From positions 1 through 32,000 of the forward strand of contig JAEOSH010000016.1 in the NCBI GenBank assembly GCA_016840465.1: DNA of 32,000 bases, in the 5' to 3' direction. The translations under genes were made by a program, and so were the position numbers. Of the stretch, positions 1 through 29,651 are shown one piece after another. The stretch is from Candidatus Baldrarchaeum yapensis. GTDB lineage: Archaea > Asgardarchaeota > Baldrarchaeia > Baldrarchaeales > Baldrarchaeaceae. The first letter of the stretch is position 1; every line of letters begins with the position of its first letter. The notes below the pieces were generated by a model. That model searched no databases and was not told where the DNA came from. It saw only the letters and a program-made list of their open reading frames with translations.

Positions 1-593
1 ATTTTCAGCAATTCTATCAGACCTTCCATTACCCCCTCCCCTTTAATTGCGGACGCCTCAATTATTTTAACACCGTCCAATTTCAGTATTTCGCGAATGC
101 GTTCGGCCTTAAGGGCGTTTTTGAGGTCCTGCTTATTTGCAATTAACACCATAGGTATATTGTCTCCTAAGAAATTCCTTATTTCTTCCAATAGAGCGAA
201 GATATATCCCGCTTGGCCGGGCTTTGTGCTATCTATTACGAAAAGTACGCCGTCGCTACCTTTAGCTATAGCTTCTCTGACGTTCTTGAAATGCAACTGG
301 CCAGGCGCTCCCATGAGAGTTACTTCCCAGATCTCCATGTTTTTGCTCTTCAAATCCTCCCTTCTCAGCTTAGAACTTTCAATTATCTTGTCCTCATCTC
401 CGTGCAGCCATAACACTCTTCCCATGTCGAATCCAACGGTTGTGGAGATGATTGTGGATCCGTGCTTGTATATTCTTTCTATACTTACTGCTTTAGGGTC
501 GAGTGAGTGAACTAGTGTTGTTTTACCTGCTTGGAAGGGACCCACCACGTACACTTTTATTTTTCCCGCCACGTTTGTATGTTGGCCATGCAT
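1..593 (-). CDS. Small GTPase, MglA/CvnD-like (3' end runs off the window; not in the ORF track)
   Basis: Manual translation from ATG at 593 (SD-like GAGGT upstream): MHGQHTNVAGKIKVYVVGPFQAGKTTLV...STTVGFD...LMGAPGQLHF...GVLFVIDS...LIANKQD...EASAIKGEGV. G1, G2, G4 (NKQD) and G5 (SAI) are present; G3 is GAPGQ with no Asp. The frame stays open to position 1. Confidence 0.92.
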   Translation of the reverse strand, partial: MHGQHTNVAGKIKVYVVGPFQAGKTTLVHSLDPKAVSIERIYKHGSTIISTTVGFDMGRVLWLHGDEDKIIESSKLRREDLKSKNMEIWEVTLMGAPGQLHFKNVREAIAKGSDGVLFVIDSTKPGQAGYIFALLEEIRNFLGDNIPMVLIANKQDLKNALKAERIREILKLDGVKIIEASAIKGEGVMEGLIELLK

Positions 594-2689: not shown

Positions 2690-3781
2690 TTACAGTCTCT
2701 TGGCGGCCGCCCTTATTATGGGGTCCATGAACTCGTACTTCCCGTTCTCGTCCTTAAGTATAGATGCTTTGACCAGGTTCTTCAGCAATGTTGTAACGGT
2801 TGGGCTTGGGAGTTCCCTTCCTTCCGACGCTTCCATTTTTCTCTTTATTTCGCTCCACCTATTAGTTCCCTCTGCTACGGATTTCAGTATTATCACGTAT
2901 CGTCTTCTTCCCGCCTCTCTAAGTTTCAGGAAGTTGTTTATCTCGCTGATGGCTTGGTGCACTGCCATTTCGAATATTTCGTCTACGATCTCCTCTGTCA
3001 CTTTTCCCACGCTTACGGCTTTAGCGCCGAAAAATGTAAGCCATCCTGGAATTCCGTTGAATTTTTCGACTGCGTATTCCAGCACTTTTGTGTTCGGGTG
3101 CATGTTGTACTGTTTAAAGCCCATTTTCAGGAATTCGAGGGAGAGTTCTCTTGAAAAATTCTCAAGACGTACCTCATGAACGTATCTCCCGTAAAGGGGA
3201 GAGTCAGGGTCATCCAATGCAAGTGTTCCATACAGCAGGCCCATTTCTGAGCCCGTCAAAACCGTTGAGATGTTTCTCCGGTAGTCGTATATGTGGGCGA
3301 GCATTATTACTATCTGTCGGGCTCCTCTTATCTGCTGAAATTCATCAAACGCCAAAACGATTCTTGTTCCGTGATCCCTAGCCCACTCATCCATCTCATC
3401 TATTATTGATGAAATGGAGGCTTTCTTCCAAGATATCGAGATGCCGATGCCTAGAACCTCGACTCCCTTAATGTTTTTCATATAATCCTTAATTGTGTCC
3501 CAGATTTTTCTGTGTTTCCTTGCCATTTGGTTGAAAGCTTCCTGAAACGCGAGCATAATGTCTTTCTTTGAAGGATTGATGGGAAGGTTCCTGCAGTCGA
3601 CTATCACGTGCGGATACCCTGCTTCTTTCAGCCCTACTAAGAGCAGGGATGTCTTTCCGGTCCTTCTAAGTCCTAAAATCAGAGATAACGGATATCTAAG
3701 GCCATCTATGAACAGTTTAAGCTCATGTTCCCTGTCAAAGAAGTCCTCCCTGCGCTCCTTAGGACGAGGGTCAAACAACAT
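2690..3781 (-). CDS. Archaeal AAA+ ATPase (ATPase_2-like) with C-terminal winged helix
   Basis: N-terminus MLFDPRPKERREDFFDRE, Walker A GLRRTGKTS, Walker B LAFDEFQ, TGSEMG, GRY, GIPGWL, and a C-terminal wHTH ending YEFMDPI. Confidence 0.92.
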   Translation of the reverse strand: MLFDPRPKERREDFFDREHELKLFIDGLRYPLSLILGLRRTGKTSLLLVGLKEAGYPHVIVDCRNLPINPSKKDIMLAFQEAFNQMARKHRKIWDTIKDYMKNIKGVEVLGIGISISWKKASISSIIDEMDEWARDHGTRIVLAFDEFQQIRGARQIVIMLAHIYDYRRNISTVLTGSEMGLLYGTLALDDPDSPLYGRYVHEVRLENFSRELSLEFLKMGFKQYNMHPNTKVLEYAVEKFNGIPGWLTFFGAKAVSVGKVTEEIVDEIFEMAVHQAISEINNFLKLREAGRRRYVIILKSVAEGTNRWSEIKRKMEASEGRELPSPTVTTLLKNLVKASILKDENGKYEFMDPIIRAAAKRL

Positions 3782-3904: not shown

Positions 3905-4081
3905 TCACTTCTTTTCTTCCTTCTTTATTTCCTTTTTCCATTCTTTTATTATGTCCAAATTTTTATCCTCAAAGGAGAGGTTCTTTGCTTCTAGAGGCTT
4001 TCCAAGCCACTTCTTGTAGAAGGTCTTCAGATCCGGAAGGAACTCGAATATTACGGGATATTCGGGCGGCATGTTTGTCAT
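3905..4081 (-). CDS. 58-aa hypothetical protein translationally coupled to the GTPase (not in the ORF track)
   Basis: ATG at 4081 overlaps the GTPase TGA (ATGA) with AGGAG upstream. Translation: MTNMPPEYPVIFEFLPDLKTFYKKWLGKPLEAKNLSFEDKNLDIIKEWKKEIKKEEKK*. Confidence 0.7.
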   Translation of the reverse strand: MTNMPPEYPVIFEFLPDLKTFYKKWLGKPLEAKNLSFEDKNLDIIKEWKKEIKKEEKK

Positions 4082-4608
4082 AGAGTCTCCTTCTTCTTTC
4101 TCGCCAAGAACTCGTTCAGCTTCACATATTCGAATATCATGTCAAAGAGTCTGCCGACATTTTCTTTAAGTAATGCTGATGTTTGGAGGTAGAATTTCAC
4201 GTTTATTTTCTTTTTAAGTTCGTCTATTGCTTTTTCTACAGTTTCGTCATCTATTTTCTTAATATCTCTCTTATTCCCGACAACTATGACAGTCGTGTCC
4301 TTTCCTGCAAACTTAGTTATGTGATCAGCCCATGTGGATAGAAGACTCTCGAGCGTTTCGGGTCTTGACAGATCAAACACTAATACTACGAGGGATGCAC
4401 CTTTAAGTAAGTCTATTATTGCTTTTCTGAACCACTCCTGCCCAGCAAAGTCCCATACTACGATCTTGTAATTATCCTTTGTGAAGGTGTAGAAATCGAC
4501 CCCTCTTGTTGACCTTACCTCCGCAATACTCTCGCCCATGAACGCCTTTATTAAAGATGTCTTCCCGACAGCCGATTCTCCGACAAATGCTACTTTCATG
4601 GGTATCAA
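4078..4608 (-). CDS. Ras-superfamily small GTPase (Rab/Roc-like)
   Basis: G1 GESAVGKT, G2 STRGVDF, G3 WDFAGQE, G4 GNKRD, G5 TSAL. Start is TTG 4608 (TTGA overlap with the upstream stop, GAGGAGG upstream) or ATG 4599. No C-terminal Cys; basic tail RKKK. Confidence 0.95.
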   Translation of the reverse strand: MIPMKVAFVGESAVGKTSLIKAFMGESIAEVRSTRGVDFYTFTKDNYKIVVWDFAGQEWFRKAIIDLLKGASLVVLVFDLSRPETLESLLSTWADHITKFAGKDTTVIVVGNKRDIKKIDDETVEKAIDELKKKINVKFYLQTSALLKENVGRLFDMIFEYVKLNEFLARKKKETL

Positions 4609-4994
4609 GCAAAGACCCTCCTCACGCTTGTCATCAGGTCCATTATTATTTCCCTTGAGGTCTCCATTTCCTCCTTTGGGCATGATGTGACAAATATTAT
4701 CCCGTAATCCTCGTATCCTATGAGTAGGACGTTATCTCCCTTATCAATATGCATTATTACTGATCCTTTGAACTCCTTGACATTCATTAGGTCTCTGAGT
4801 TTGTTAATAGCATTGTGCACCAGCGATATCGCAACATCCTCGTCCACACTGCTTTTAAAGAGTATAAATCCGTCTATTGTGGATATAACGAGGTTTTTGA
4901 GGTTACTGATCTTTTTTGCTTTCTTATCTATCACCTTTTGAAAACTGTCCGGTTTTCTTCTGAAAATTTTGTCCAGTAATTTCTGAGGGTGCAT
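4605..4994 (-). CDS. Divergent roadblock/LC7 (or longin-like) domain protein
   Basis: Helix-LVISTIDGFILFKS-helix-beta strands-C-terminal helix; it parallels IIVRTDGLILAT in the canonical roadblock two genes upstream. Confidence 0.62.
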   Translation of the reverse strand: MHPQKLLDKIFRRKPDSFQKVIDKKAKKISNLKNLVISTIDGFILFKSSVDEDVAISLVHNAINKLRDLMNVKEFKGSVIMHIDKGDNVLLIGYEDYGIIFVTSCPKEEMETSREIIMDLMTSVRRVFA

Positions 4995-5028
4995 GCCACC
5001 ACCGAAAAAAGATGTTGAAGAGGTGGTA

Positions 5029-5511
5029 TTATTGCTTTTTTATGTAAGCTATCTTGAGGATACATTTCTCGTTGTTCAAGTCAGTTTCATGCTCTATGGA
5101 CCCTACAGTAACATTTCCCAACACTGTCTGTACGAACGCCGATGCGAGAGATATCAGGCAAAGAGGGCAGGTTTTTTCTCCCTTTTCTGCGGCGAGCCTT
5201 GCCATTTCGAGAAAATCACATCCCGTGACCTCGCATGTTACCTCGTACGCGTCTCCTGCATCTTCAATCTTGAGGTTAACGTTCTTAACAACACCCATCT
5301 GTTTTGCAAACTTTGCGTAACTCTCGATAAAGTTTGTGATGTTCGAGTAATTAAATCCGTACTCTTGAACTTTTTTCATCAAAAAACCAATGTCCTTGAC
5401 GAGTATATCGGCGACACGTCTGTATATGAGTTTTAATGATATGCCTAAGTTCTCTATCGCTTTGAACAAATAATAAAATATCCATCCACGCGCAAAACGT
5501 TGCTTGCTCAT
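5029..5511 (-). CDS. V4R / HNOX / Bet3-fold protein with conserved cysteines
   Basis: Helical N-half, then beta hairpin YEVTCEVTGCDF, TCPLC and terminal KCILKI, the Cys pattern typical of V4R domains. Strong SD GAGGTGA upstream. Confidence 0.68.
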   Translation of the reverse strand: MSKQRFARGWIFYYLFKAIENLGISLKLIYRRVADILVKDIGFLMKKVQEYGFNYSNITNFIESYAKFAKQMGVVKNVNLKIEDAGDAYEVTCEVTGCDFLEMARLAAEKGEKTCPLCLISLASAFVQTVLGNVTVGSIEHETDLNNEKCILKIAYIKKQ

Positions 5512-5534
5512 ATTCTCACCTCAATTCAAAGTAA

Positions 5535-5942
5535 TTATATTTTTTTCAGAACTTCTCTAATTTTGTCAGCAGCCCTTTTCATTTCAACGAACATGAGACC
5601 CAAGTTTGCATCCTTTTGAGCGATAGCAACAAGAGATACTTCCGGGGTAACGGATACAAGCATTATTATCCTGTTTGACCCGCGAATTATCGCATTTTCT
5701 AGAGTTCCACCACCCAACTCCTCAAGAACTCGCGCCCCCACTCCGAAGACGGATGCGCTCATCGCGGCTACGATGTCCCCATCTATATCCTCGGGCAATG
5801 CGGTAGCGAGAATGAGACCATCGGTCCTGACAATAATTGATCCTTCTATTTCGGCGTCCTTTCTTTCCATCTCCTTCAAAATGGATGTTAGAGTTTCTCT
5901 GTATGAAACGATACTTTTCTTTCCTGATTTAAAAATTAGCAT
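5535..5942 (-). CDS. Roadblock/LC7 (MglB-like) domain protein
   Basis: EIEGSIIVRTDGLILATALP..DIVAAMSASVFGVGARVLEELGGGTLENAIIRG...NLGLMFVEMKRAADKI. Start moved from 6035 to ATG 5942, which has GGAGGT 6 nt upstream. Confidence 0.95.
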   Translation of the reverse strand: MLIFKSGKKSIVSYRETLTSILKEMERKDAEIEGSIIVRTDGLILATALPEDIDGDIVAAMSASVFGVGARVLEELGGGTLENAIIRGSNRIIMLVSVTPEVSLVAIAQKDANLGLMFVEMKRAADKIREVLKKI

Positions 5943-6144
5943 ATGCGGACCTCCATCAACTAATAAATATTCTCGATATTTTTCGATCTGAATATTGCCG
6001 TGTCCCTTCTGCAAGAAATACTGGTTACCTTTCATTTTTATATTTCGTTTTTCTTGCGATAAGGCATGTAACTTGTTTTAAGTTGGCAATTCCAAGTGAC
6101 GAGAATCTCTGTAACCCCCGAGCACATCGGAGAACGCTGAATAA

Positions 6145-6177
6145 CATGCATTAAAATTCATGCATTAAAATTAATGC
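6145..6177. repeat. 14-bp tandem duplication containing an inverted repeat (putative double operator)
   Basis: CATGCATTAAAATT occurs twice (6145-6158, 6159-6172). GCATTAA-AA-TTAATGC (6162-6177) is a perfect 7-2-7 palindrome, with a one-mismatch copy at 6148-6163. Confidence 0.75.
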
Positions 6178-6188
6178 TATTATTTTCG

Positions 6189-6640
6189 TTAGAGTCTGTA
6201 CTTTATGTGTATTTTCTCCTTACGCCCGGGGCACTCGGGGTTGGGGGCATCTCACTTCATATTCCATGCTCTTCTCGAAAAACTTATACTTTGGCTTCCC
6301 ATCCGCCTTACGTAGTCGAGAACAATCCATGAGGATCGCACGTGAAAGCCTTCTACTGGTTGCTGTATTCTAAGTTCCTTCTTAGACTTTTTGTACAATT
6401 TCCCTTTCTAGCAACACTTCCCAGTGAACCTTGGAGTATTTGAGGGACTCTCGCTCAACTCTGAGCGTACGGTCTCCATTCTTCAATTCGAGTGAGATTC
6501 TTCTTCCATCAACCTGCTCACGGTGGTATCTTATGAGTGCCCTCTCTTTCTTTCTGCCTTCACCAGCAATAAAAAGAAATGCCAGAAGGTGATATAGAGA
6601 TGCTATATTTCTGTGTCGTGCCTCTATCTGTTCCTGACAT
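6189..6640 (-). pseudogene. Frameshifted hypothetical gene (about 149 aa if restored)
   Basis: Four single-base indels in short runs (about 6633, 6406, 6306, 6245) join protein-like segments into MSEQIEARH...VHWEVLLEGKLYKKSKKELRIQQ...YEVRCPNPECPGRKEKIHIKYRL*. The reconstruction is manual. Confidence 0.5.
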
Positions 6641-6788
6641 AAAAGTGTGTGTTATGACTCCGTTGTAGTGTGATTCCTCTCACCCTCCCCGTAAATATAC
6701 GAAATCTCTTAAGATTTAATAAATTACCAAGAGTTAGGATTTAAAGGCAAGAACGGAATAAAGTATTGTTCCAAAGGTTGCGTGGGAG

Positions 6789-13637: not shown

Positions 13638-13901
13638 ATGTACGAAATAGTTAGTGTTACCAAGAAGGGTCAGGCGACCATACCGAAGAGGTTACGAGAG
13701 AAGTACGGCATCCAGGACAAGGTTATGGTTATAGATGTAGGTTACGGGATACTCCTTAAGCCGGTACCAACGCCCGATCAGGCATATGGGTCTCTCAAAG
13801 GGTTGTTTGGCAAAAAATCGTCAAAGGAATTACTAAGGGAAGCAAGAGAGGAAGACCTAGAAAAGGAGAAGAGGTTACTAGAGCATGTCGGTGAAAAGTA
13901 A
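13638..13901 (+). CDS. vapB: AbrB/MazE/SpoVT-family antitoxin
   Basis: VSVTKKGQATIPKRLREKYGIQDKVMVIDVGYGILLKP; overlaps the PIN gene. Confidence 0.9.
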   Translation: MYEIVSVTKKGQATIPKRLREKYGIQDKVMVIDVGYGILLKPVPTPDQAYGSLKGLFGKKSSKELLREAREEDLEKEKRLLEHVGEK

Positions 13902-14313
13902 GGAGAGAATAGTCTTCGATACTGAGGCCATTCTTGCCTTTTATTTGGGAGAGGAGGGCGGTGATGTGGTAAGAGATTATCTTAAGAGAGTCCAAGCGGA
14001 GGAAATTGAGGGGTACTTCAATATAGTCAATTTAACGGAATTTTACTACATACTTTATAGACGGGATCCTAAGATCGCGGAGGAAAAGGAGAAAGAACTC
14101 CGACTTTTCGGTGTCACCATTGTCCCCATAGAGGATGATGAAATTTGGAGAGAGGCTGGGAAAATAAAGGGGAAACACGCATTGTCTCTTGCGGATGCCT
14201 TTGCCGCCGCAACTGCCAAGGTGTTAGGTGGCAAATTGCTAACTGGTAGCGATGAAGAGTTCGAGGGCTTAGACTTAGAGGTAATAAGAATAAGAAAGAA
14301 AAAGGATTCCTGA
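13885..14313 (+). CDS. vapC: PIN-domain (VapC) toxin
   Basis: IVFDTEAILAF, NLTEFYY, LSLADAFAAATA and LLTGSDEEF; the acidic PIN residues are intact. Confidence 0.92.
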   Translation: MSVKSKERIVFDTEAILAFYLGEEGGDVVRDYLKRVQAEEIEGYFNIVNLTEFYYILYRRDPKIAEEKEKELRLFGVTIVPIEDDEIWREAGKIKGKHALSLADAFAAATAKVLGGKLLTGSDEEFEGLDLEVIRIRKKKDS

Positions 14314-16679: not shown

Positions 16680-17384
16680 TTAGATTAGGCGGCTTATTAT
16701 TGCCAAGAATACGACCGCCAGCAATAACATCGCAATTGCGGCTATTATCAACAATATGAGTTCGCTCTCGGAGGGGTAATGAGGCATCTGCTCGGGGTGT
16801 GCTAGAAGTTCACCAGCTGTTTCTGGCGATATCACATCTCCCTTCACCGATGCACTTATTATGCTAATTATCGGTTCGGGCTCCTGCAACAGGTCGCCAT
16901 AAGCAGAGGGATCCGCCGGGTCTTCTCCCGCATGCTTTCTAAGGAAATAGCGCACCCACACCTCCTCGAGCAACGCACTGGATAAAAAATACTGTCTCAC
17001 CTTATCGGCGTATACTACGATATTGTCAGTCACCTGATCGTACATTATGGAGTAGGTAATGTTTCTTATCCTCACAAAGAACGGTCTGTTTTTCAGATAG
17101 TTTTTTAACGACCTCCAAAAGTCCTTGAATGCTATACGAAGGGCGTACTCGAGGTCGGTGAGATGTGATGGAACTTTTACTGGGCTTACTTCTATGAGGT
17201 CTCGGACGGTGAGGGGTTTCATGCAGAGGGGGCATGTTCCCTTTTCTTTTAACCACTGCATGATATGATTCTTATGACCCTTTACGTGACAGTACGGGCA
17301 TTCTACGATGGCATCGCTTTCCTTCAACACCTTAAAACATATTATGCATCTCTCCTGCTCGCGATCCTCGGCTCCTTCGCTCAT
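16680..17384 (-). CDS. RING-finger protein with a C-terminal transmembrane anchor
   Basis: C13-x2-C16, C29-x2-C32, H37-x2-H40, W44, C51-P-x-C54; terminal ILLIIAAIAMLLLAVVFLAIISRLI*. Confidence 0.82.
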   Translation of the reverse strand: MSEGAEDREQERCIICFKVLKESDAIVECPYCHVKGHKNHIMQWLKEKGTCPLCMKPLTVRDLIEVSPVKVPSHLTDLEYALRIAFKDFWRSLKNYLKNRPFFVRIRNITYSIMYDQVTDNIVVYADKVRQYFLSSALLEEVWVRYFLRKHAGEDPADPSAYGDLLQEPEPIISIISASVKGDVISPETAGELLAHPEQMPHYPSESELILLIIAAIAMLLLAVVFLAIISRLI

Positions 17385-19821: not shown

Positions 19822-22800
19822 TTGAAGGATGAGAAACCAACTTTAACACTCGTGCGGCAACTAGGAATGAGTGATAGAGAGGCTACCATTTACGAGGTTT
19901 TACTCAGATCGGGTGTGCTGACATCAGGTGAGATTTCCGCATTAACAGGTTTTCCGCTGGACGATGTTGAACGGACATTGGCTTCATTAGCGAAGAAAAA
20001 TGTGGTTTTGAAGGTTCCAGGGATCATTGACCGTTACGTGGCGATGCCTCCATTTATGCTCCTTGGCGAGACTTTGAGTACATGTAGGGAGGAGATTTTG
20101 AAGGCATATAAGCAGTTTTCTGACGTCATAAAGCGCATAGAGGGAGAAATAACGAAATTAGCCAAAGATTTCAGGGAAAATTCGAAGAAAATACTGGAGG
20201 ATGGTGTTAAAACTGTTAGTGAGAGGATTCCCGAGTTAATGAAGGACTTAGAGGAAATCTTATCTGAGAATCTCGAAAAGATCTCAAAGGACTTGGAAGA
20301 AGTTGAGAATAAGATAACCAACGTCATAGAGAGAGCCATAAAAGGCATATCGTCGGTTGTGAAGGAGGCTAGAAGTAGCGCGGAGCGAAGCATTTCGAAC
20401 GGAGAAAGAGCTTTAGTGGGAGTACTAGAAAGGACATTAGAGGAGGTAAATTCGACGATTGAGGAAAAGAGTGCGGAGCACGCCTCCGCCGGTCAGGAAG
20501 TTCTGGACGGTTTCCATGTGGAGGTCGAGAGGATAACGGGTGATGTCAGTAAGCAACTTGAGGCCCTCAAAAGCAACCTCATTGAGAGGGTTTCGGGAAT
20601 TCGATCCGACTTCTCAGAGACTTTTAAGTCCATGCTCGAGCGCTTTGAACAAATTTCTGCAGAGTTCACAGAGGTTTTGGAGGGATTAATGACCGGCATC
20701 GAGAGGGACGTACCGGGATCGCTTGGAAAGGTTCTCGAATTGCACCGAGACGTATTAGCAAAGACTAAGGAGAATATCAGTACTACCCTGTCAGAGGTCT
20801 TATCGCGTGTCCAGAGCGGAATTGCGTCCATGAAACGTGATATAACTACTTTTCTTACGGAGACCACAATGACTGAAGAGCAACAGCTCGGAGACCTTGA
20901 GAAGATGATCGATAACTTGCTCAAGGAGTTGCGAGAGACGTTGGATAACGCCTTTAATACAATTTCCAGTACAGTTGCCGGTGCAACAAAGCACGCGAAG
21001 ACAATGATAGAGCAAAACGCGAGAAGCCTAGTCGTTAAGGTCGCGCAAGTTGCCAGATCGTTCATAAATGCCTATTACACACACGCTGTGAGGTTCCGAG
21101 ACTCTGTGCTGAGCGCCATTTCAGACGAGTTTGATGCTCTAAAAGTGGAGTTTGACGGATTAAGGAGGAATCTCACGGAGAAAATAACGGATATTCTTGA
21201 AACCTACAAGAGCGGCTCTAATACTGTGATCAGAGAGATAGAAGGATGGGCCAGCACCACATTTTCGGATATAAGTGCAAATATGGAGAAATTCAGGTCA
21301 GATATCATTAAGATTATAAAGCAGACGAGAGATGCCGTTAATAAGAGAATTTCATCGGTTGCGATTGATAAAGATGTTTTCGGTGATCTCAATCAGGGAC
21401 TGGCGAGGATTTCGGATCTTGCAAAAAGAGCGCTTACTGGCATCATTAGTAATCTTGAGACCCATATCAACAGGCTCACTGATGTGTTGCACAGTTATAT
21501 CTCCTCTCAAATTTCAAGCCTGCGAGCAAGAATTGAGGCAGCCATGCATGAGGTGGAGGGGGCATCGGATCCCGTTAAATTTATGAGCGAAACTCTTGCG
21601 GAAATTGAGGAAATAATACGTACGATGGATGAGGGACTGAAGCAGAAGGTGAGTTTCGAGTTATCGAGGATGCGTCAGTCCGTTGACAGACTTTCATTAA
21701 CCCTAGAGAGCGATGTTGACACCTGGCAGAGGGATTTGGAACAACTTGTCGAGGACATTATGGGACAGATAAACTCGATGCTGAACTTTTCGGTAGATGT
21801 CGTGACTCGCACAATGGAAACTGCCGAGAGGAGAATTTCTTCATCTATGGAAGGTTTACAAAAACTCGTGAGCAGGTTAATAGAACACACGAAGAAGCAG
21901 ATAACATCCATAGTCAGTAGCGAAATCAGGGGGATTGAAAGAGAGACTGAAGCCTTCATTAACGGGCTGAAGGATACTTTTTCAAAATTCATCGAAAGTA
22001 TTTCGATGCTCGGTGGAAGAATTGGCGAGAAGATAAAGTCGGAACTTGAGTTTCTGAAGAGAATGGAGGAGATGGGCAAAAAGTTGGATGATGCGATAAT
22101 GGAGGTGTTTTCAGAGTATCAGAGTTCAATGGTCAAGGTCTTCGACGAGAGCGAGAAGGCAATAGAGTTGGCATTAGACAGCCTCAGGGAGTTAGACGAG
22201 GAAATAATAAGCGTCAGGAAGAGTTTTGAGAAGTCTTTCAAGTCGTTCATCGATGATGTGAAGCGCAGGATCGACGGCGCTGTAAAAGCCCTAGAGGGAT
22301 GCTTTGATGACGTTAGTAAAAGCATAGAGGATGCCATTCAGGAGGTGATGAAGATAGTTTCGCAAAATACCGACAGTTTAGAGAGGAGGGTCGATGGATT
22401 ATTCACCAGTGCAAGAAAAGAGATTATAGATAGGGCGAAGGAGAGGATAAGCAAATGTCACGATAGGATAATCAAAGTTGGTAGGCTGTACGCGGAAGAA
22501 TTGAAAACCGAGTCCTCCGCTATGAACTCGCTCCTCTCTGATATGCAGAACTCCCTTGATGTCTTAATATCGACTGGTACTAAGAATATTCACACTACGA
22601 TGACCTCGATAGAGGAAAAGGTTAGAAAGATGATGAGTGAACACACTGTAAAGGTAAAGAGCGCTCTTGATGACGTTAAAAAGAAGTTAAATGAAAGTAT
22701 AAACAACCTCGTTGCCAGCAGTAAAGATCTGCTGTCTAATATGAGTAAGGAAATAGGATCGACGCTAGACAACGTGAAAAAGAAGCATGAGGAGCTAGGG

Positions 22801-23538
22801 ACATCCATCGGGGCGGAAACGACCTCTACATTATCGAAAGTTTCGCCTCGTGTGTCTTCCCTCCTCGAGGAGTTTCGAAGAAAAGTAGAAGGAGATTTGA
22901 TGTCGGTTGCAAACGAAATATCTCTGAAGGCGAAGGCCCTTTCGCTGGAACTCGATGGCGCGGCATCGCAGATAATAGAGGGGGTTTCACGCGGATTGAA
23001 GCTTGCTCGCGTGGATGAACATATAAATGCTCTTGAGGATGAGATGAGAGATGCAGAAAACCTTATAAAGAGGCTACTGGAGGTTTCCGTGAGCATTGGA
23101 CCATATCTTGCGTCTAAAACGTGGTATTGCATCGGAGTAAATGCCATAATTGCACGTATCAGAGACATAATATCGAGAGCGGAGGAGAAGCTTGCAGTAA
23201 TGGCTCCACGGTTTTCTATGCTTGCAGATCTTGTGGATCCGCTATTGGAGGCCGGGCAGAGATGTAGAATTTTCGTGATAGCGGAAGTAAGCGATGATGA
23301 TGACCTGAAGGTGGCGGGCGAACTTTCAAGATCTGGGAACATACGAGTGAAAAGGGCGGCAACGGGCTCCTATTACTGTGTCCTAAGGGACGACAAAGAG
23401 GTTTTAGTGGCCCCGATGGAAGACGAGGATCGTGAGGCCATGGCTTTCACATCGCAACTGGATGGTTATGTATCGCTGATAAAGGAGATCTTTAACTTCT
23501 TTATGAGAAAGAGCACTAGGGTGATGCAGAAAAAGTGA
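19822..23538 (+). CDS. TrmB-family protein with a roughly 1000-aa alpha-helical insertion
   Basis: N-terminal TrmB wHTH (LGMSDREATIYEVLLRSGVLTSGEIS...RYVAMPP) and C-terminal TrmB effector-like domain (TWYCIG..IRDIISRAEEKL..RDDKEVLV..LIKEIFNFF) flank a Pro-poor amphipathic helical region of about aa 78-1099. Confidence 0.85.
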   Translation: MKDEKPTLTLVRQLGMSDREATIYEVLLRSGVLTSGEISALTGFPLDDVERTLASLAKKNVVLKVPGIIDRYVAMPPFMLLGETLSTCREEILKAYKQFSDVIKRIEGEITKLAKDFRENSKKILEDGVKTVSERIPELMKDLEEILSENLEKISKDLEEVENKITNVIERAIKGISSVVKEARSSAERSISNGERALVGVLERTLEEVNSTIEEKSAEHASAGQEVLDGFHVEVERITGDVSKQLEALKSNLIERVSGIRSDFSETFKSMLERFEQISAEFTEVLEGLMTGIERDVPGSLGKVLELHRDVLAKTKENISTTLSEVLSRVQSGIASMKRDITTFLTETTMTEEQQLGDLEKMIDNLLKELRETLDNAFNTISSTVAGATKHAKTMIEQNARSLVVKVAQVARSFINAYYTHAVRFRDSVLSAISDEFDALKVEFDGLRRNLTEKITDILETYKSGSNTVIREIEGWASTTFSDISANMEKFRSDIIKIIKQTRDAVNKRISSVAIDKDVFGDLNQGLARISDLAKRALTGIISNLETHINRLTDVLHSYISSQISSLRARIEAAMHEVEGASDPVKFMSETLAEIEEIIRTMDEGLKQKVSFELSRMRQSVDRLSLTLESDVDTWQRDLEQLVEDIMGQINSMLNFSVDVVTRTMETAERRISSSMEGLQKLVSRLIEHTKKQITSIVSSEIRGIERETEAFINGLKDTFSKFIESISMLGGRIGEKIKSELEFLKRMEEMGKKLDDAIMEVFSEYQSSMVKVFDESEKAIELALDSLRELDEEIISVRKSFEKSFKSFIDDVKRRIDGAVKALEGCFDDVSKSIEDAIQEVMKIVSQNTDSLERRVDGLFTSARKEIIDRAKERISKCHDRIIKVGRLYAEELKTESSAMNSLLSDMQNSLDVLISTGTKNIHTTMTSIEEKVRKMMSEHTVKVKSALDDVKKKLNESINNLVASSKDLLSNMSKEIGSTLDNVKKKHEELGTSIGAETTSTLSKVSPRVSSLLEEFRRKVEGDLMSVANEISLKAKALSLELDGAASQIIEGVSRGLKLARVDEHINALEDEMRDAENLIKRLLEVSVSIGPYLASKTWYCIGVNAIIARIRDIISRAEEKLAVMAPRFSMLADLVDPLLEAGQRCRIFVIAEVSDDDDLKVAGELSRSGNIRVKRAATGSYYCVLRDDKEVLVAPMEDEDREAMAFTSQLDGYVSLIKEIFNFFMRKSTRVMQKK

Positions 23539-26706: not shown

Positions 26707-28008
26707 ATGGAAGGCCTTTACGAAGTTTTCGGCAATTTGCTGATGCGCTCATGTGAACGCTCCTTTATGAATCTGAGGGAGAAAGTCCGCCGGCACACGA
26801 AGGATATAAGAGAAGGAGAACGGGCGGATATTAACGTTGGATTTATCGATGGAAGTCTGAGTTTCGATGATCGAAGAGGAGTGGGTGTGTTCTTATTCTC
26901 AGCATGCGGACTGATAGTGGATGGGAAGTCGCTTAGAATGCATGAGTTCTTTTGTACTTCGAAATCTCCCGTTCCTCATATACTTTTTCCGAAATTTCTA
27001 GTTCAAACTCGCGGAAACAACCTCATGTCAATTTTCGAGTTGATGGTTGCACTTTCAATGATAAGAACGGAAAGCGCTCACTTGATTCTCATGGATGGCT
27101 CATATATCTCAACACTGCTCGCCCCAGCGGGTGCGTTGAGGGCGTTGTATAGGGACATAAGGAACCGGCTTGACAGACTACGAGTTCAGAGGTTCATAGA
27201 CGAGGTGAATTCATTCTTACAGGAGGTTATAGAGAAGAGATTTCCGGGAATTTTGGAGATGAAAGATGCCAAACGATGTTTCATCAACTTTCTTATGAGT
27301 TCTAGGAACATTGCGACCGATTTTTACCGGAGGTTGTACCATATATGTAGTGGTGCAGGCATTGGAGAGGTTTCAATGGATCTACTGAACTATTCAAACA
27401 TGTGTGTCGAGGAGAATTTCTTCCTTTTCCTTCTCGATTTCGTACTGGAAGAGGCAAAAGATAAGGGAATTGCTGTAGCATGGTTTGCGAAGGACAGTGA
27501 CAGTAGGTTCATCACAAGGGGGGATGACCATTTAAAGTGGTTGACCGACGAGGCATTTCTTGACGAGGTGTGGAAGGATCTGTCCAATGTTTACATTAGG
27601 ATTTCTGATATTTCCTCGCTTTCGCCGATCTCCCATGGGAGGGCGGCTGTGAGGAGCGTGGCGGATAAGGGTGACTGCATTTTTCAATATGACCTTGCGG
27701 AGAGGTTTTACAAAGAATGGGGAGGGTATGATGGAATATATGTGAAGTTTCTGAAAGGCCCGGTTTTCCAGATAACATTGCCTGCACACTTCTCCAGCGT
27801 CATTGATCGGATACCGTCGATCCTGTTGCCCATGTGCGAAAAGAGGACAGGTTGTCCTCGGCCGATAATCTATGTGCACTTCAAAGCCCTTATGAAGGAA
27901 AGCGTGGCAAGATTATTTGCAGATGAGTTATGGTTTAAAACCCCTAGGACAGAATGGTTGATTCGTGTCATGCTATCAAGGTCGGGAAGAAGGAGGATAG
28001 GTGTTTGA
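26707..28008 (+). CDS. nurA: NurA-family nuclease
   Basis: FIDGS, LILMDGS, FAKDSDSR and C-terminal GCPRPIIYVHFKA (GYP..AH-like); TTGA-coupled to the HerA gene. Confidence 0.8.
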   Translation: MEGLYEVFGNLLMRSCERSFMNLREKVRRHTKDIREGERADINVGFIDGSLSFDDRRGVGVFLFSACGLIVDGKSLRMHEFFCTSKSPVPHILFPKFLVQTRGNNLMSIFELMVALSMIRTESAHLILMDGSYISTLLAPAGALRALYRDIRNRLDRLRVQRFIDEVNSFLQEVIEKRFPGILEMKDAKRCFINFLMSSRNIATDFYRRLYHICSGAGIGEVSMDLLNYSNMCVEENFFLFLLDFVLEEAKDKGIAVAWFAKDSDSRFITRGDDHLKWLTDEAFLDEVWKDLSNVYIRISDISSLSPISHGRAAVRSVADKGDCIFQYDLAERFYKEWGGYDGIYVKFLKGPVFQITLPAHFSSVIDRIPSILLPMCEKRTGCPRPIIYVHFKALMKESVARLFADELWFKTPRTEWLIRVMLSRSGRRRIGV

Positions 28009-29651
28009 GTTCGGAAAAAATAGGAAGAGTTGTTAATGTTGTAGGGAGGAATCGCGTCACAATCGCTGTTAATGAGGACAAACTCGTGAAAGTTTCGAAG
28101 CCGGGTGTTTATGTCAAAATCCCCGTATTCGGGGTAACGTTATTCGGCGTTGTGACGAGTTTCTCTCTAAGTGATGAACTCTACAGAGCATCTAGAATTG
28201 TTGAGGAGTTCGAAGGGTACGGAGAGTTCCGGCTTTCGCGAAATGAAATTCTAGTAACGCTTGTTGGATCCATGGACGAGCATGGTAACATCAAAAGGGG
28301 AATTCCGCTACTGCCGAGACCCGGAGATCACGTTGAGCTGGTGGATACTGATACTCTCAAGAGGGTGTTTGAGAGCGGAGATGTTGAAATCGGCAGACTC
28401 AATACAAACTCCGACGTTAGGGTATTCTTAGACATAAACAAACTATGTTCTAGGCATCTGGCGATTCTTGCGATGACAGGTGCTGGAAAGTCAAACGCGC
28501 TTGCGGTTATACTCGGAGAACTGCTGAAAAAATTTCCATATGCAAGAGTACTGCTTATAGATACCCATAGTGAGTACGTATCGATGGCAAAAACGGAAGA
28601 TTTCAATGCTCGCGTTTTCACTCCGCTCAAACCGATGATAGAATTGCTGGAGAATCAGTTTGACGTGACCCCTCAAATATTTGAGGTGCCATATTGGGTT
28701 CTGAGCCTAGATGAATGGTATAGCTTACTGAGACTCGATACGAGGGCGACGAAGCAACGCATGTACCTACGTGATGGAATCAGAAAGATCAAGAGAGAGT
28801 TGGACATCAACGCAGGTGCAAACGATCCCCTCTATTTTGATATCAATGAACTGATTTCTAAGCTTAAATCGGGTAGAAAGGACGCATCATTAGAAGACTT
28901 ACTAAATAAGATGGAAGAGCTGCTGGAGGATGATGAGAAGAGGTTTATAACGGAACCTGAGGAGACCAAGGATCTTCTCGAGGATCTTAAGAGGGGCTAC
29001 TTGGCAAGCGGGCACAATGAAAAAGAAGCAATAAAGAGAGCGTCTTACGATCTATACTATCGTCTGGCAGAGAGGGTTCTGAAGGAGGGGCTTAACATAG
29101 TTGCTTTAGGCGGGCTGTCGGGCGATACCCAAGATGCCATCACCTCCACAATTTTAAGGATGATCTGGCGCCTGATAACAAATCTGAGATATCAGGGAGT
29201 CGTGTGGCCGACAATGATAGTTTTAGAGGAGGCGCACAACTATGCACCCTCGGGAAGGTATACTGCATCTAGAGGGGTCGTAGAAACCTTAGCAAAGGAG
29301 GGGCGTAAGTTCGGGATTTGCCTTGTTATAATATCACAGAGGCCTAGAGAACTCTCTGAAACCGTACTTGCACAGTGCGGAAACTTAATTGCACTCAGAA
29401 CTGTAAACCCCGCTGATCAGAACTACATTATCAGTAGCCTTGAGGAGGTGAACAAGGAGATAATTGAGGATCTCCCAGGGCTAGAGACCGGAGAAGCGAT
29501 AGTTTCAGGACCTGCGATAAGATTTCCTGCGATTGTGCAGGTTTATAACTTCAAGGAAAGGTTCGGAATAGAGTTAGGCGGGAAGGACATAGACTTTAGA
29601 ACTCACTGGATGCACGGCGCCGTTGGTGGGTCATTTGGAGAGGAGAAATGA
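28005..29651 (+). CDS. herA: HerA-family helicase/ATPase
   Basis: N-terminal HAS-barrel-like region, HLAILAMTGAGKS, IVLEEAHNYAP, KEGRKFG and SQRP. TTG start at 28005 behind AGGAGG. Confidence 0.92.
   Translation: MSSEKIGRVVNVVGRNRVTIAVNEDKLVKVSKPGVYVKIPVFGVTLFGVVTSFSLSDELYRASRIVEEFEGYGEFRLSRNEILVTLVGSMDEHGNIKRGIPLLPRPGDHVELVDTDTLKRVFESGDVEIGRLNTNSDVRVFLDINKLCSRHLAILAMTGAGKSNALAVILGELLKKFPYARVLLIDTHSEYVSMAKTEDFNARVFTPLKPMIELLENQFDVTPQIFEVPYWVLSLDEWYSLLRLDTRATKQRMYLRDGIRKIKRELDINAGANDPLYFDINELISKLKSGRKDASLEDLLNKMEELLEDDEKRFITEPEETKDLLEDLKRGYLASGHNEKEAIKRASYDLYYRLAERVLKEGLNIVALGGLSGDTQDAITSTILRMIWRLITNLRYQGVVWPTMIVLEEAHNYAPSGRYTASRGVVETLAKEGRKFGICLVIISQRPRELSETVLAQCGNLIALRTVNPADQNYIISSLEEVNKEIIEDLPGLETGEAIVSGPAIRFPAIVQVYNFKERFGIELGGKDIDFRTHWMHGAVGGSFGEEK

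Follow-up and report, generated by a model that had tools for sequence, protein, structure and literature searches.

The stretch of DNA analyzed here (the window) comprises the first 32 kb of contig JAEOSH010000016.1 from the Asgard archaeon Candidatus Baldrarchaeum yapensis (class Baldrarchaeia), whose genome amounts to 2.27 Mb and is 96% complete. On the minus strand, five co-directional genes between positions 3905 and 5942 encode a canonical roadblock protein (RB1), a four-cysteine protein of 160 aa predicted to adopt the Bet3/V4R fold, a divergent second roadblock-like protein (RB2), a small GTPase of Rab-like type, along with a micro-ORF (open reading frame) of 58 aa. We hold with moderate confidence that these five genes constitute one operon for a small-GTPase switch together with its own regulators. 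Genes for a roadblock, a protein of the same V4R-like family, and a small GTPase are kept adjacent in many Asgard lineages, and a functional linkage of the components is well supported by this conservation.

The arrangement follows from the ORF list and the sequence. RB1 (135 aa, 5942..5535) is separated by 23 nt (5534-5512) from the gene of the 160-aa protein (5511..5029), which in turn lies 34 nt (5028-4995) from RB2 (129 aa, 4994..4605). The GTPase gene, which ends at 4078, encodes 176 aa from a TTG at 4608 or 173 aa from an ATG at 4599, and both starts are in use among public gene callers; the former yields a TTGA overlap with the RB2 stop codon and the latter a 5-nt gap. The GTPase stop and the start of the micro-ORF (4081..3905, seen in the ORF list, preceded by a GGAG motif, and present in public annotations) share an ATGA overlap. 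Purine-rich motifs of the GGAGG/GAGGTGA/GGTGG type precede each start in the operon, with GGAGGT located 6 nt upstream of the RB1 ATG at 5942. A longer reading of RB1 (166 aa from 6035) can be drawn; homologues span 121-135 aa and public calls are mostly 135 aa. Across public assemblies of the same species, gene callers predict the same five genes, and only the starts of RB1 and the GTPase vary. A preliminary description of the window had reported five co-oriented genes with these two gaps, two 4-nt overlaps, and Shine–Dalgarno-like motifs; that observation is confirmed, with the TTGA overlap existing only if the TTG start is used.

RB1 belongs to the MglB-like Roadblock/LC7 family, matching Pfam Robl_LC7 (PF03259) with an E-value of 9.4e-15 and 54.6 bits against a curated cut-off of 23. 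RB2 has no Pfam match at E-values up to 0.1, Robl_LC7 included, and a word-index search with its 129 residues returned no homologue. The sole homologue found is a 127-aa gene product encoded at the same position in a member of the Njordarchaeia (31% identity, E 1.6e-8). The ESM Atlas model of RB2 (predicted template modeling score (pTM) 0.83) resembles Robl_LC7 clusters at TM-scores of 0.70-0.73, and Foldseek searches with a low-confidence AlphaFold2 (AF2) model returned almost nothing but MglB, roadblocks from Asgard archaea, and the C-terminal domains of Rags (TMq 0.48-0.58, E 2.5e-3 or weaker). From these models, RB2 is assigned with moderate confidence as roadblock-like at the level of the fold only.

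The GTPase matches Pfam Ras with an E-value of 2.7e-27 and retains all five G boxes (GESAVGKT, the T in STRGVDF, DFAGQ, NKRD, and SAL). All 60 of its listed sequence matches in the PDB are Rabs, headed by Rab6 (1.2e-20), Sec4, Ypt6, Rab12, Rab1, and Rab11. In a by-eye comparison, motifs such as GVDF and DFAGQE may correspond to the Rab-specific RabF motifs. The protein is not a member of the MglA family, given that it retains DFAGQ as opposed to the aspartate-lacking xxPGQ form of the G3 motif. It consists of a single 176-aa G domain with no C-terminal roadblock domain, and the operon contains no scaffold-like gene. Its basic C-terminus is devoid of cysteine, and thus of a prenylation motif, for which reason the protein is described as Rab-like rather than as a prenylated Rab; with no lipid-anchor motif, any membrane targeting would have to come via partners.

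The 160-aa protein has no Pfam match, and hence none to PF04051 (TRAPP/Bet3) or PF02830 (V4R). Sequence relatives are few (a word-index search gave one homologue), and a PDB sequence search with the profile of its family, termed V4R-like here, produced chance-level matches only. Its AF2 model, computed from a 29-sequence alignment, has a predicted local distance difference test (pLDDT) score of 90 and a pTM of 0.79, and depicts four to five helices against a four-stranded sheet. Foldseek retrieved the V4R domains of PoxR and MopR, TRAPPC3/Bet3, and H-NOX, and otherwise a handful of de novo designs whose TM-scores were poor. In VIA-align, the best row was the Thorarchaeota TRAPPC3 chain 7yh3_D (Z 9.3, 146 aligned, root-mean-square deviation 4.0); eukaryotic Bet3-family subunits scored Z 8.1-9.3, the V4R domains of DmpR, MopR, and PoxR Z 7.0-8.0, and H-NOX Z 6.5-8.2. 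A search of 48,161 representative chains that did not employ Foldseek placed TRAPP chain 3cue_B at the top (Z 9.0), with Thor-TRAPPC3 also among the top matches, while the remaining full-length matches came from the same superfamily: YslB, DmpR, BcsD, H-NOX, PoxR, and MJ1460 (Z 6.9). The resemblance to TRAPP Bet3-family chains and Thor-TRAPPC3 spans 144-154 aligned residues at Z 9.0-9.3. The model places the 160-aa protein in the Bet3/V4R/H-NOX fold class, in which the Bet3, V4R, and H-NOX scores lie within ~1-2 Z of one another, and we claim no choice between Bet3 and V4R. C98 is found in all 29 family members, and C115, C118, and C150 are conserved at 90% or more. Thor-TRAPPC3 and PoxR bind zinc via four cysteines in the equivalent region (PMC10933270), and by analogy the four conserved cysteines of the 160-aa protein most likely hold a structural zinc. 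V4R domains and TRAPPC3 also bind hydrophobic ligands (PMC10933270); the core of the 160-aa protein may accommodate a small hydrophobic ligand with a modulating effect on the switch.

Membership of the 160-aa family in TRAPP (PF04051) by sequence was considered and rejected: hhalign against 12 Asgard PF04051 proteins, including Thor TRAPPC3, gave a non-significant probability of 5.8%. The PF04051 profile matched in 43 of 43 genomes of one Asgard family and nowhere in the 2.27-Mb genome studied here, in which PF02830 has seven matches. Lacking profile membership in both PF04051 and PF02830, the protein is therefore not called TRAPPC3 or a V4R-domain protein. The identities proposed in the preliminary description were otherwise borne out: a canonical roadblock and a Rab-like GTPase by the Pfam and PDB matches above, a V4R/Bet3 fold for the 160-aa protein by the AF2 model, Foldseek, VIA-align, and the 48,161-chain search, and, with moderate confidence, a second, divergent roadblock at fold level by the ESM Atlas and Foldseek. 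An Asgard origin of the locus is likewise supported.

The evidence for a unit of function comes from relatives. Of the proteins most similar to the 160-aa protein (30-39% identity), each is encoded immediately 3' of a roadblock gene, the roadblocks of these clusters being 44-52% identical to RB1, and each cluster adjoins an orthologue of the operon's Rab-like GTPase (49-58% identity). The Njordarchaeia cluster reads roadblock, V4R-like, 127-aa RB2 homologue, GTPase, and a 274-aa zinc-ribbon protein. A second lineage has roadblock, V4R-like, GTPase, and a 270-aa protein; a third has a 269-aa protein, roadblock, and V4R-like, followed by a convergent GTPase gene on the opposite strand; and in a fourth, the GTPase gene is divergent and upstream of roadblock and V4R-like. 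Comparison of the clusters therefore defines a conserved core of roadblock, Bet3/V4R-like protein, and Rab-like GTPase. Because the same components adjoin in several divergent lineages, and because the 2.27-Mb genome has few Robl_LC7 (9) and Ras-family (12) matches, the arrangement exceeds what chance would produce.

The window's species holds two further modules of this kind. A truncated MglA-like GTPase gene at 1..593 (minus strand), cut by the contig end, belongs to module B, as longer same-species contigs show; on those contigs, the two modules lie 3-7 kb past the window start (L027:14918-18927), so that three such modules occur within ~9 kb. Module B encodes a GTPase, a Robl_LC7 protein, and a 155-aa PF27323 protein, while module C encodes a GTPase, a Robl_LC7 protein, a 156-aa V4R-like protein, and a GNAT protein. 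Both GTPases are MglA-like, with a G3 motif lacking the aspartate, and MglA heads the PDB matches of the module B GTPase (E 5.8e-11). Identity to the module C counterparts is 54% for RB1 (against the roadblock) and ~26% for the 160-aa protein (against the V4R-like protein). A Baldrarchaeota metagenome-assembled genome from another family shows synteny with modules B and C at 64-77% identity. Precomputed annotation assigns PF27323 (RdxA_C) to the sister B-type protein and not to the 160-aa protein; hhalign relates the family of the latter (A/C-type) to the B-type with a probability of 90.5% (E 1.4e-6, 138 columns), and among the Atlas feature matches only 18-24% of members carry PF27323. On these sequence comparisons, the 160-aa protein represents a distinct family related to this recent Pfam entry. 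The same genome also contains roadblock/GTPase clusters with no V4R-like gene (G000:C64:15537-17712 and G000:C30:40820-41866), one of which has four roadblocks around one GTPase.

A wider survey extended these observations. The family profile matched 42 of 301 Asgard genomes, and 59 neighborhoods from 40 other Asgard genomes were examined, with genes labeled by profiles built for this analysis. Seven of nine additional roadblock-labeled genes that were checked against Pfam gave Robl_LC7 matches, one of them above the curated cut-off. A same-strand roadblock gene lies within 300 nt of the V4R-like gene at 29 of the 59 loci, distributed over 9 of 12 GTDB families, and a GTPase gene lies within 1.5 kb at 19 of the 59. 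Five families, among them those of Candidatus Harpocratesius repetitus (complete genome) and of a lineage with true PF04051 genes, display the order V4R-like, roadblock, MglA-like GTPase, roadblock, roadblock, sometimes with one roadblock more. In these Loki-/Thor-type clusters the extra roadblocks are divergent, one Thor-type example having a weak LAMTOR5 match, and the GTPases have an aspartate-less G3. Conservation of gene order in relatives, which the preliminary description had set as its own check, is upheld for the association as a whole, with roadblock/V4R-like/GTPase clusters in four other lineages in addition to the survey; of the five-gene unit, the core stands and the fifth gene, not conserved outside the species, does not. 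In metagenomic genomes, relatives of the B-type protein (45-47% identity; L127 and L128) are encoded as a tandem pair, both genes matching PF27323, after an MglA-like GTPase and a PatA_N-roadblock protein, with response regulators and a hybrid histidine kinase in the flanks. With a B-type relative in such a two-component-system cluster, the design is likely not confined to Asgard archaea.

The fifth gene has no relative by BLAST, hidden Markov model, or Atlas searches, and among the orthologous clusters it is confined to its own species. Across eight assemblies of the species, the 2.3-kb operon has only two substitutions (window positions 4001 and 4004), both within the 58-aa ORF and both synonymous in its frame. 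The coupled start and these two single-nucleotide polymorphisms are the only coding hints; judged from them, the ORF is probably translated by coupling, and it is probably a lineage-specific addition. In two of the orthologous clusters its position, directly 3' of the GTPase gene, is taken by the gene of the ~270-aa protein, which is encoded in three clusters in all (L095:1823-2647, L097:6070-6882, and L093:3451-4260). Zinc-ribbon-like repeats of the CxxC...HxDH type occur twice in this protein, whose C-terminal half is helical; it matches no Pfam family beyond weak zinc-ribbon matches. A search with one query did not find the gene in the window's genome, and tblastn detected no remnant in the window; the 58-aa ORF bears no similarity to the ~270-aa gene.

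A physical association was evaluated by complex prediction with an RB1 dimer and the V4R-like protein at 2:1 stoichiometry, using own alignments for both and three controls. The combination scored 0.53 (runs 0.51, 0.53, and 0.62) versus 0.00 for the best of the three controls, at least 84% of the contacts agreed between runs, and the partner pLDDT was at least 86. In calibration, 58 of 80 solved complexes attained the score mark, as did 2 of 110 mismatched pairs; at scores of 0.60 or below, those that attained it were only 7 of the 80 solved complexes and both passing mismatches, counts that hold only roughly for a 2:1 set-up with own alignments. Of the single regulatory complex envisaged in the preliminary description, the contact between the RB1 dimer and the V4R-like protein thereby gains weak support. 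Given the conserved adjacency of the two genes, a direct roadblock–V4R-like contact of the kind predicted is plausible.

Known systems suggest how such a module could operate. The MglB dimer is a GTPase-activating protein (GAP) for MglA (PMC3199381, PMC4316618), and roadblock and longin domains serve as GTPase platforms (PMC3747258). Since roadblock dimers are known to control small GTPases, RB1, alone or with RB2, is by analogy likely to regulate the Rab-like GTPase. The account that we favor, with somewhat better than even confidence, is a GTPase switch built on a roadblock platform and equipped with a Bet3/V4R-fold accessory subunit. A roadblock dimer (RB1-RB1 or RB1-RB2) would serve as a platform, binding the GTPase and determining its nucleotide state in the way MglB does for MglA and roadblock and longin platforms do in Ragulator, and the Bet3/V4R-fold protein would dock on this platform. 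The latter would carry a structural zinc at its Cys4 site and possibly a ligand cavity in its core through which the switch is modulated, and membrane targeting of the GTPase, if it happens, would be supplied by partners. The accessory-subunit role of the 160-aa protein is suggested by its fold, its Cys4 site, and the weak complex result.

Several results weigh against this account. The complex score lies in the weak band, and Z-scores of 8-9 fall in a range that VIA-align terms middling. RB2 compared with a 26-sequence roadblock profile in hhalign gave a non-significant probability of 3% (E 0.014). Its AF2 model is poor (pLDDT 54.5), although with secondary-structure elements in the expected order, because only two sequences exist. 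RB2 is furthermore present in two of five orthologous lineages (its own species counted) and missing from three, so an RB1-RB2 heterodimer cannot be essential to the module. One Asgard family has tandem arrays of up to a dozen V4R-like genes with roadblock-free surroundings, and several families have roadblock–V4R-like pairs with no GTPase inside 5 kb; the V4R-like family is therefore not GTPase-linked everywhere. Finally, in a survey of prokaryotic small GTPases, none of 121 non-MglA (Rup) GTPases was coupled to MglB (PMC4316618). With roadblock coupling found only for the MglA family in that survey, a Rab-like (DxxGQ) partner is not the textbook case. Of all features of the operon, this unusual partner is the most interesting. 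The family with the arrays just mentioned, exemplified by a complete 3.58-Mb Asgard genome (G039; e.g., L038 and L039), has 12-13 V4R-like paralogues, mostly in arrays of two to four, with no roadblock or GTPase gene within 5 kb.

The flanks of the operon are as follows. Directly 3' of the last stop codon, oligo-T tracts (T4 at 3896-3893 and T5 at 3875-3871, minus strand) form a possible archaeal terminator, proposed from the sequence alone. Located 123 nt downstream of the operon, a gene at 3781..2690 (minus strand) encodes a 363-aa protein of the archaeal ATPase_2 type whose C-terminus carries an MCM-type winged helix (MCM_C); this gene occurs in none of the orthologous clusters. It adjoins a ribbon–helix–helix (RHH) gene, and a PIN/MazE pair is found at 13638-14313. 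Upstream, the 846-nt stretch at 5943-6788 between RB1 and a divergent CoA-transferase gene contains no ORF above 52 aa and has no Rfam or tRNA match; a population variant (L033) differs within it, and the RB1 call of that variant is 140 aa. A scan for bacterial-type promoters and terminators, which is not applicable to archaea, gave sites no more frequent than in shuffles, and no tRNA or Rfam family was found anywhere in the window. Farther away, a 234-aa protein (16680-17384, minus strand) carries at its N-terminus a domain of eukaryote-like character, a RING finger (zf-RING_2, E 2.7e-7). In a 1238-aa protein (19822-23538, plus strand), an N-terminal TrmB-type winged helix precedes amphipathic helical repeats that resemble apolipoprotein and run for ~1000 residues (Pfam Apolipoprotein, E 8e-33). 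Neighboring genes for a NurA nuclease and a HerA helicase are located at 26707-29651 (plus strand).

Other explanations of the cluster differ chiefly in the part given to the 160-aa protein. In one, the roadblock–GTPase switch would be real and the V4R-like protein a co-expressed small-molecule or metal binder, acting as an upstream sensor or a downstream effector or cargo binder and not as a stable subunit; in its favor are the ligand binding known from V4R domains and TRAPPC3 (PMC10933270), the occurrence of the family in roadblock-free tandem arrays, and the weak complex score. This is the most credible of the alternatives, though still rather unlikely, for the V4R-like gene is tightly adjacent to a same-strand roadblock gene at 29 of 59 loci in 9 families, stand-alone roadblock–V4R-like pairs occur, and all three complex controls scored 0.00. 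The stand-alone pairs suggest that the direct partner is the roadblock and not the GTPase. The opposite direction is taken by the proto-TRAPP reading that goes with the preliminary description. On this view, the Bet3-fold and roadblock subunits would assemble into an exchange factor of the TRAPP type, which would activate the Rab-like GTPase and be an ancestor or sister of the TRAPP core of eukaryotes. The top structural matches of the 160-aa protein (TRAPP Bet3-family chains and Thor-TRAPPC3), the likeness of the GTPase to Rabs including Rab1/Ypt1, the weak predicted roadblock–V4R-like contact (0.53 versus 0.00), and a Heimdall protein consisting of a longin fused to a TRAPPC3 domain (PMC10933270) all fit that proposal. 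It is nonetheless improbable: PF04051 matches neither the 160-aa protein nor anything else in the genome, comparison of its profile with Thor TRAPPC3 falls short of significance (5.8%), and the Bet3, V4R, and H-NOX scores are only ~1-2 Z apart. The partners, moreover, are roadblocks and not longins, the GTPases of most related modules are MglA-like, the relative of the sister B-type protein (45-47%) sits among response regulators and a histidine kinase, and true PF04051 genes are located separately in Thor genomes. Thus, the likeness of fold holds, and membership in PF04051/V4R by sequence and longin-type platform proteins do not. With related modules mostly MglA-like and one in a two-component context, the module looks like a general prokaryotic design for GTPase regulation and not like a specific TRAPP ancestor; the label "proto-TRAPP" is best read as a fold analogy, which the tests neither establish nor exclude. 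A bolder mechanistic version, in which the Cys4 Bet3/V4R-fold family and roadblock dimers would physically constitute an exchange factor, or a ligand-gated GAP or guanine nucleotide exchange factor (GEF), acting on the co-encoded Rab-like GTPase, is similarly a long shot. If true, a TRAPP-like principle (Bet3-fold subunit, roadblock/longin-type platform, and Rab-like G protein) would have pre-existed as a self-contained Asgard operon, with MglA-type versions of that principle in Loki-/Thor-type genomes.

Two further readings detach the operon from a dedicated Rab-like switch and are far less probable. An anti-mobile-element or conflict system built on an MglA/MglB-like switch and using the downstream winged-helix ATPase is brought to mind by the ATPase_2/MCM_C gene next on the same strand (3781..2690), by the PIN/MazE pair and the RHH gene in the vicinity, and by a preprint reporting MglA–MglB-like modules in predicted conflict systems (10.64898/2026.10.19.760177). 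We consider it highly unlikely, given that the ATPase is in no orthologous cluster, that oligo-T tracts lie between it and the operon, and that the module is stable and widely inherited in Asgard genomes rather than patchy island content. Asgard genomes do carry many roadblock and GTPase genes (10.1101/2020.10.19.343400), and these could in principle end up as chance neighbors with unrelated functions; the operon spacing with overlapping stop and start codons, the adjacency of the three families in divergent lineages (30-58% identity), and the three modules in one genome leave hardly any probability to that idea.

A roadblock-platform switch with a Bet3/V4R-fold accessory subunit would matter because Asgard genomes encode dozens of small GTPases, roadblocks, and longins, plus a small number of Bet3/V4R-like proteins, and in MK-D1 the layout of the genome is of little help in assigning regulators to GTPases (PMC10933270). 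In the locus and its relatives, a single Rab-like GTPase is explicitly and conservedly matched with one or two roadblocks and a Bet3-fold protein; the components are small and soluble, so that their joint expression and assay are feasible. The locus is of above-average interest because it supplies a small, defined, and conserved set of proteins with which regulation of an Asgard Rab-like GTPase by Bet3- and roadblock-fold proteins can be tested. If the complex controls nucleotide cycling, it would be a prokaryotic case of Bet3-fold and platform-fold subunits acting on a Rab-like GTPase, with a bearing on the origin of TRAPP- and Ragulator-type regulators. If no complex forms, the conserved linkage would still point to an accessory component, not described so far, of the MglB/roadblock–GTPase switches of archaea.

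Among eukaryotic systems, Ragulator–Rag is similar insofar as RB2 is roadblock-like: one GTPase then goes with two or more distinct proteins of that fold, and the model of RB2 also matches the C-terminal roadblock domains of Rags. The differences are that the operon has no identified LAMTOR1-like wrapping subunit, that its GTPase lacks the Rag-type C-terminal roadblock domain, and that Ragulator has no Bet3-fold subunit. The TRAPP core combines Bet3-family and longin subunits and is the GEF for Rab1/Ypt1. It resembles the operon in its set of parts, a Bet3-fold protein together with proteins of a platform fold and a Rab-like GTPase, whereas the partners in the operon are roadblocks instead of longins, the 160-aa protein is outside PF04051, and the latter has a Cys4 site where mouse TRAPPC3 has a hydrogen bond (PMC10933270). 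Closer at hand is Thor-TRAPPC3 (7yh2/7yh3), whose structure was solved by Tran et al. in 2024 together with Asgard GTPase and roadblock structures (PMC10933270); it shares the length of ~155-160 aa, the fold, and the four cysteines, but belongs to another sequence family than the 160-aa protein according to hhalign. The genes of MK-D1 GTPases generally do not share operons with genes for roadblocks, longins, or TRAPPC3, so that partners are difficult to match (PMC10933270); here, by contrast, the V4R-like family is encoded together with roadblock and GTPase.

Literature on V4R in connection with roadblock, GTPase, operon, or MglB yielded no description of this linkage, although coverage is incomplete and supplementary tables may hold one. 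An Asgard parallel comes from a preprint by Liu et al., which describes a conserved operon in which a DENN protein accompanies a LAMTOR1-like roadblock and a Rab-like GTPase (10.1101/2020.10.19.343400). Both are Asgard neighborhoods of a roadblock-superfamily protein, a Rab-like GTPase, and a third candidate regulator, the difference being that the third component here has a Bet3/V4R fold and is not DENN; Pfam DENN has no match in the 2.27-Mb genome. Some overlap of that operon with the ~270-aa gene of the orthologous clusters is conceivable. The actinobacterial conservon, composed of the histidine kinase CvnA, the roadblock CvnB, CvnC, and the GTPase CvnD (PMC4316618), likewise adds sensor-type partners to a roadblock–GTPase pair in a multigene operon, but the present operon has no histidine kinase or CvnC-type gene, and its accessory protein is of the Bet3/V4R fold. 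In MglA–MglB systems, a roadblock gene adjoins the gene of a small GTPase, and the MglB-like genes often number two for each GTPase (PMC4316618). MglA-like GTPases are carried by modules B and C of this species and by the Loki/Thor clusters. The GTPase of the operon departs from them in being Rab-like with a normal DFAGQ, and the described MglAB module has no Bet3/V4R-fold third component. Taken by analogy with these systems, the operon would act like an MglB–MglA or Ragulator-type switch to which a Bet3-fold component has been added.

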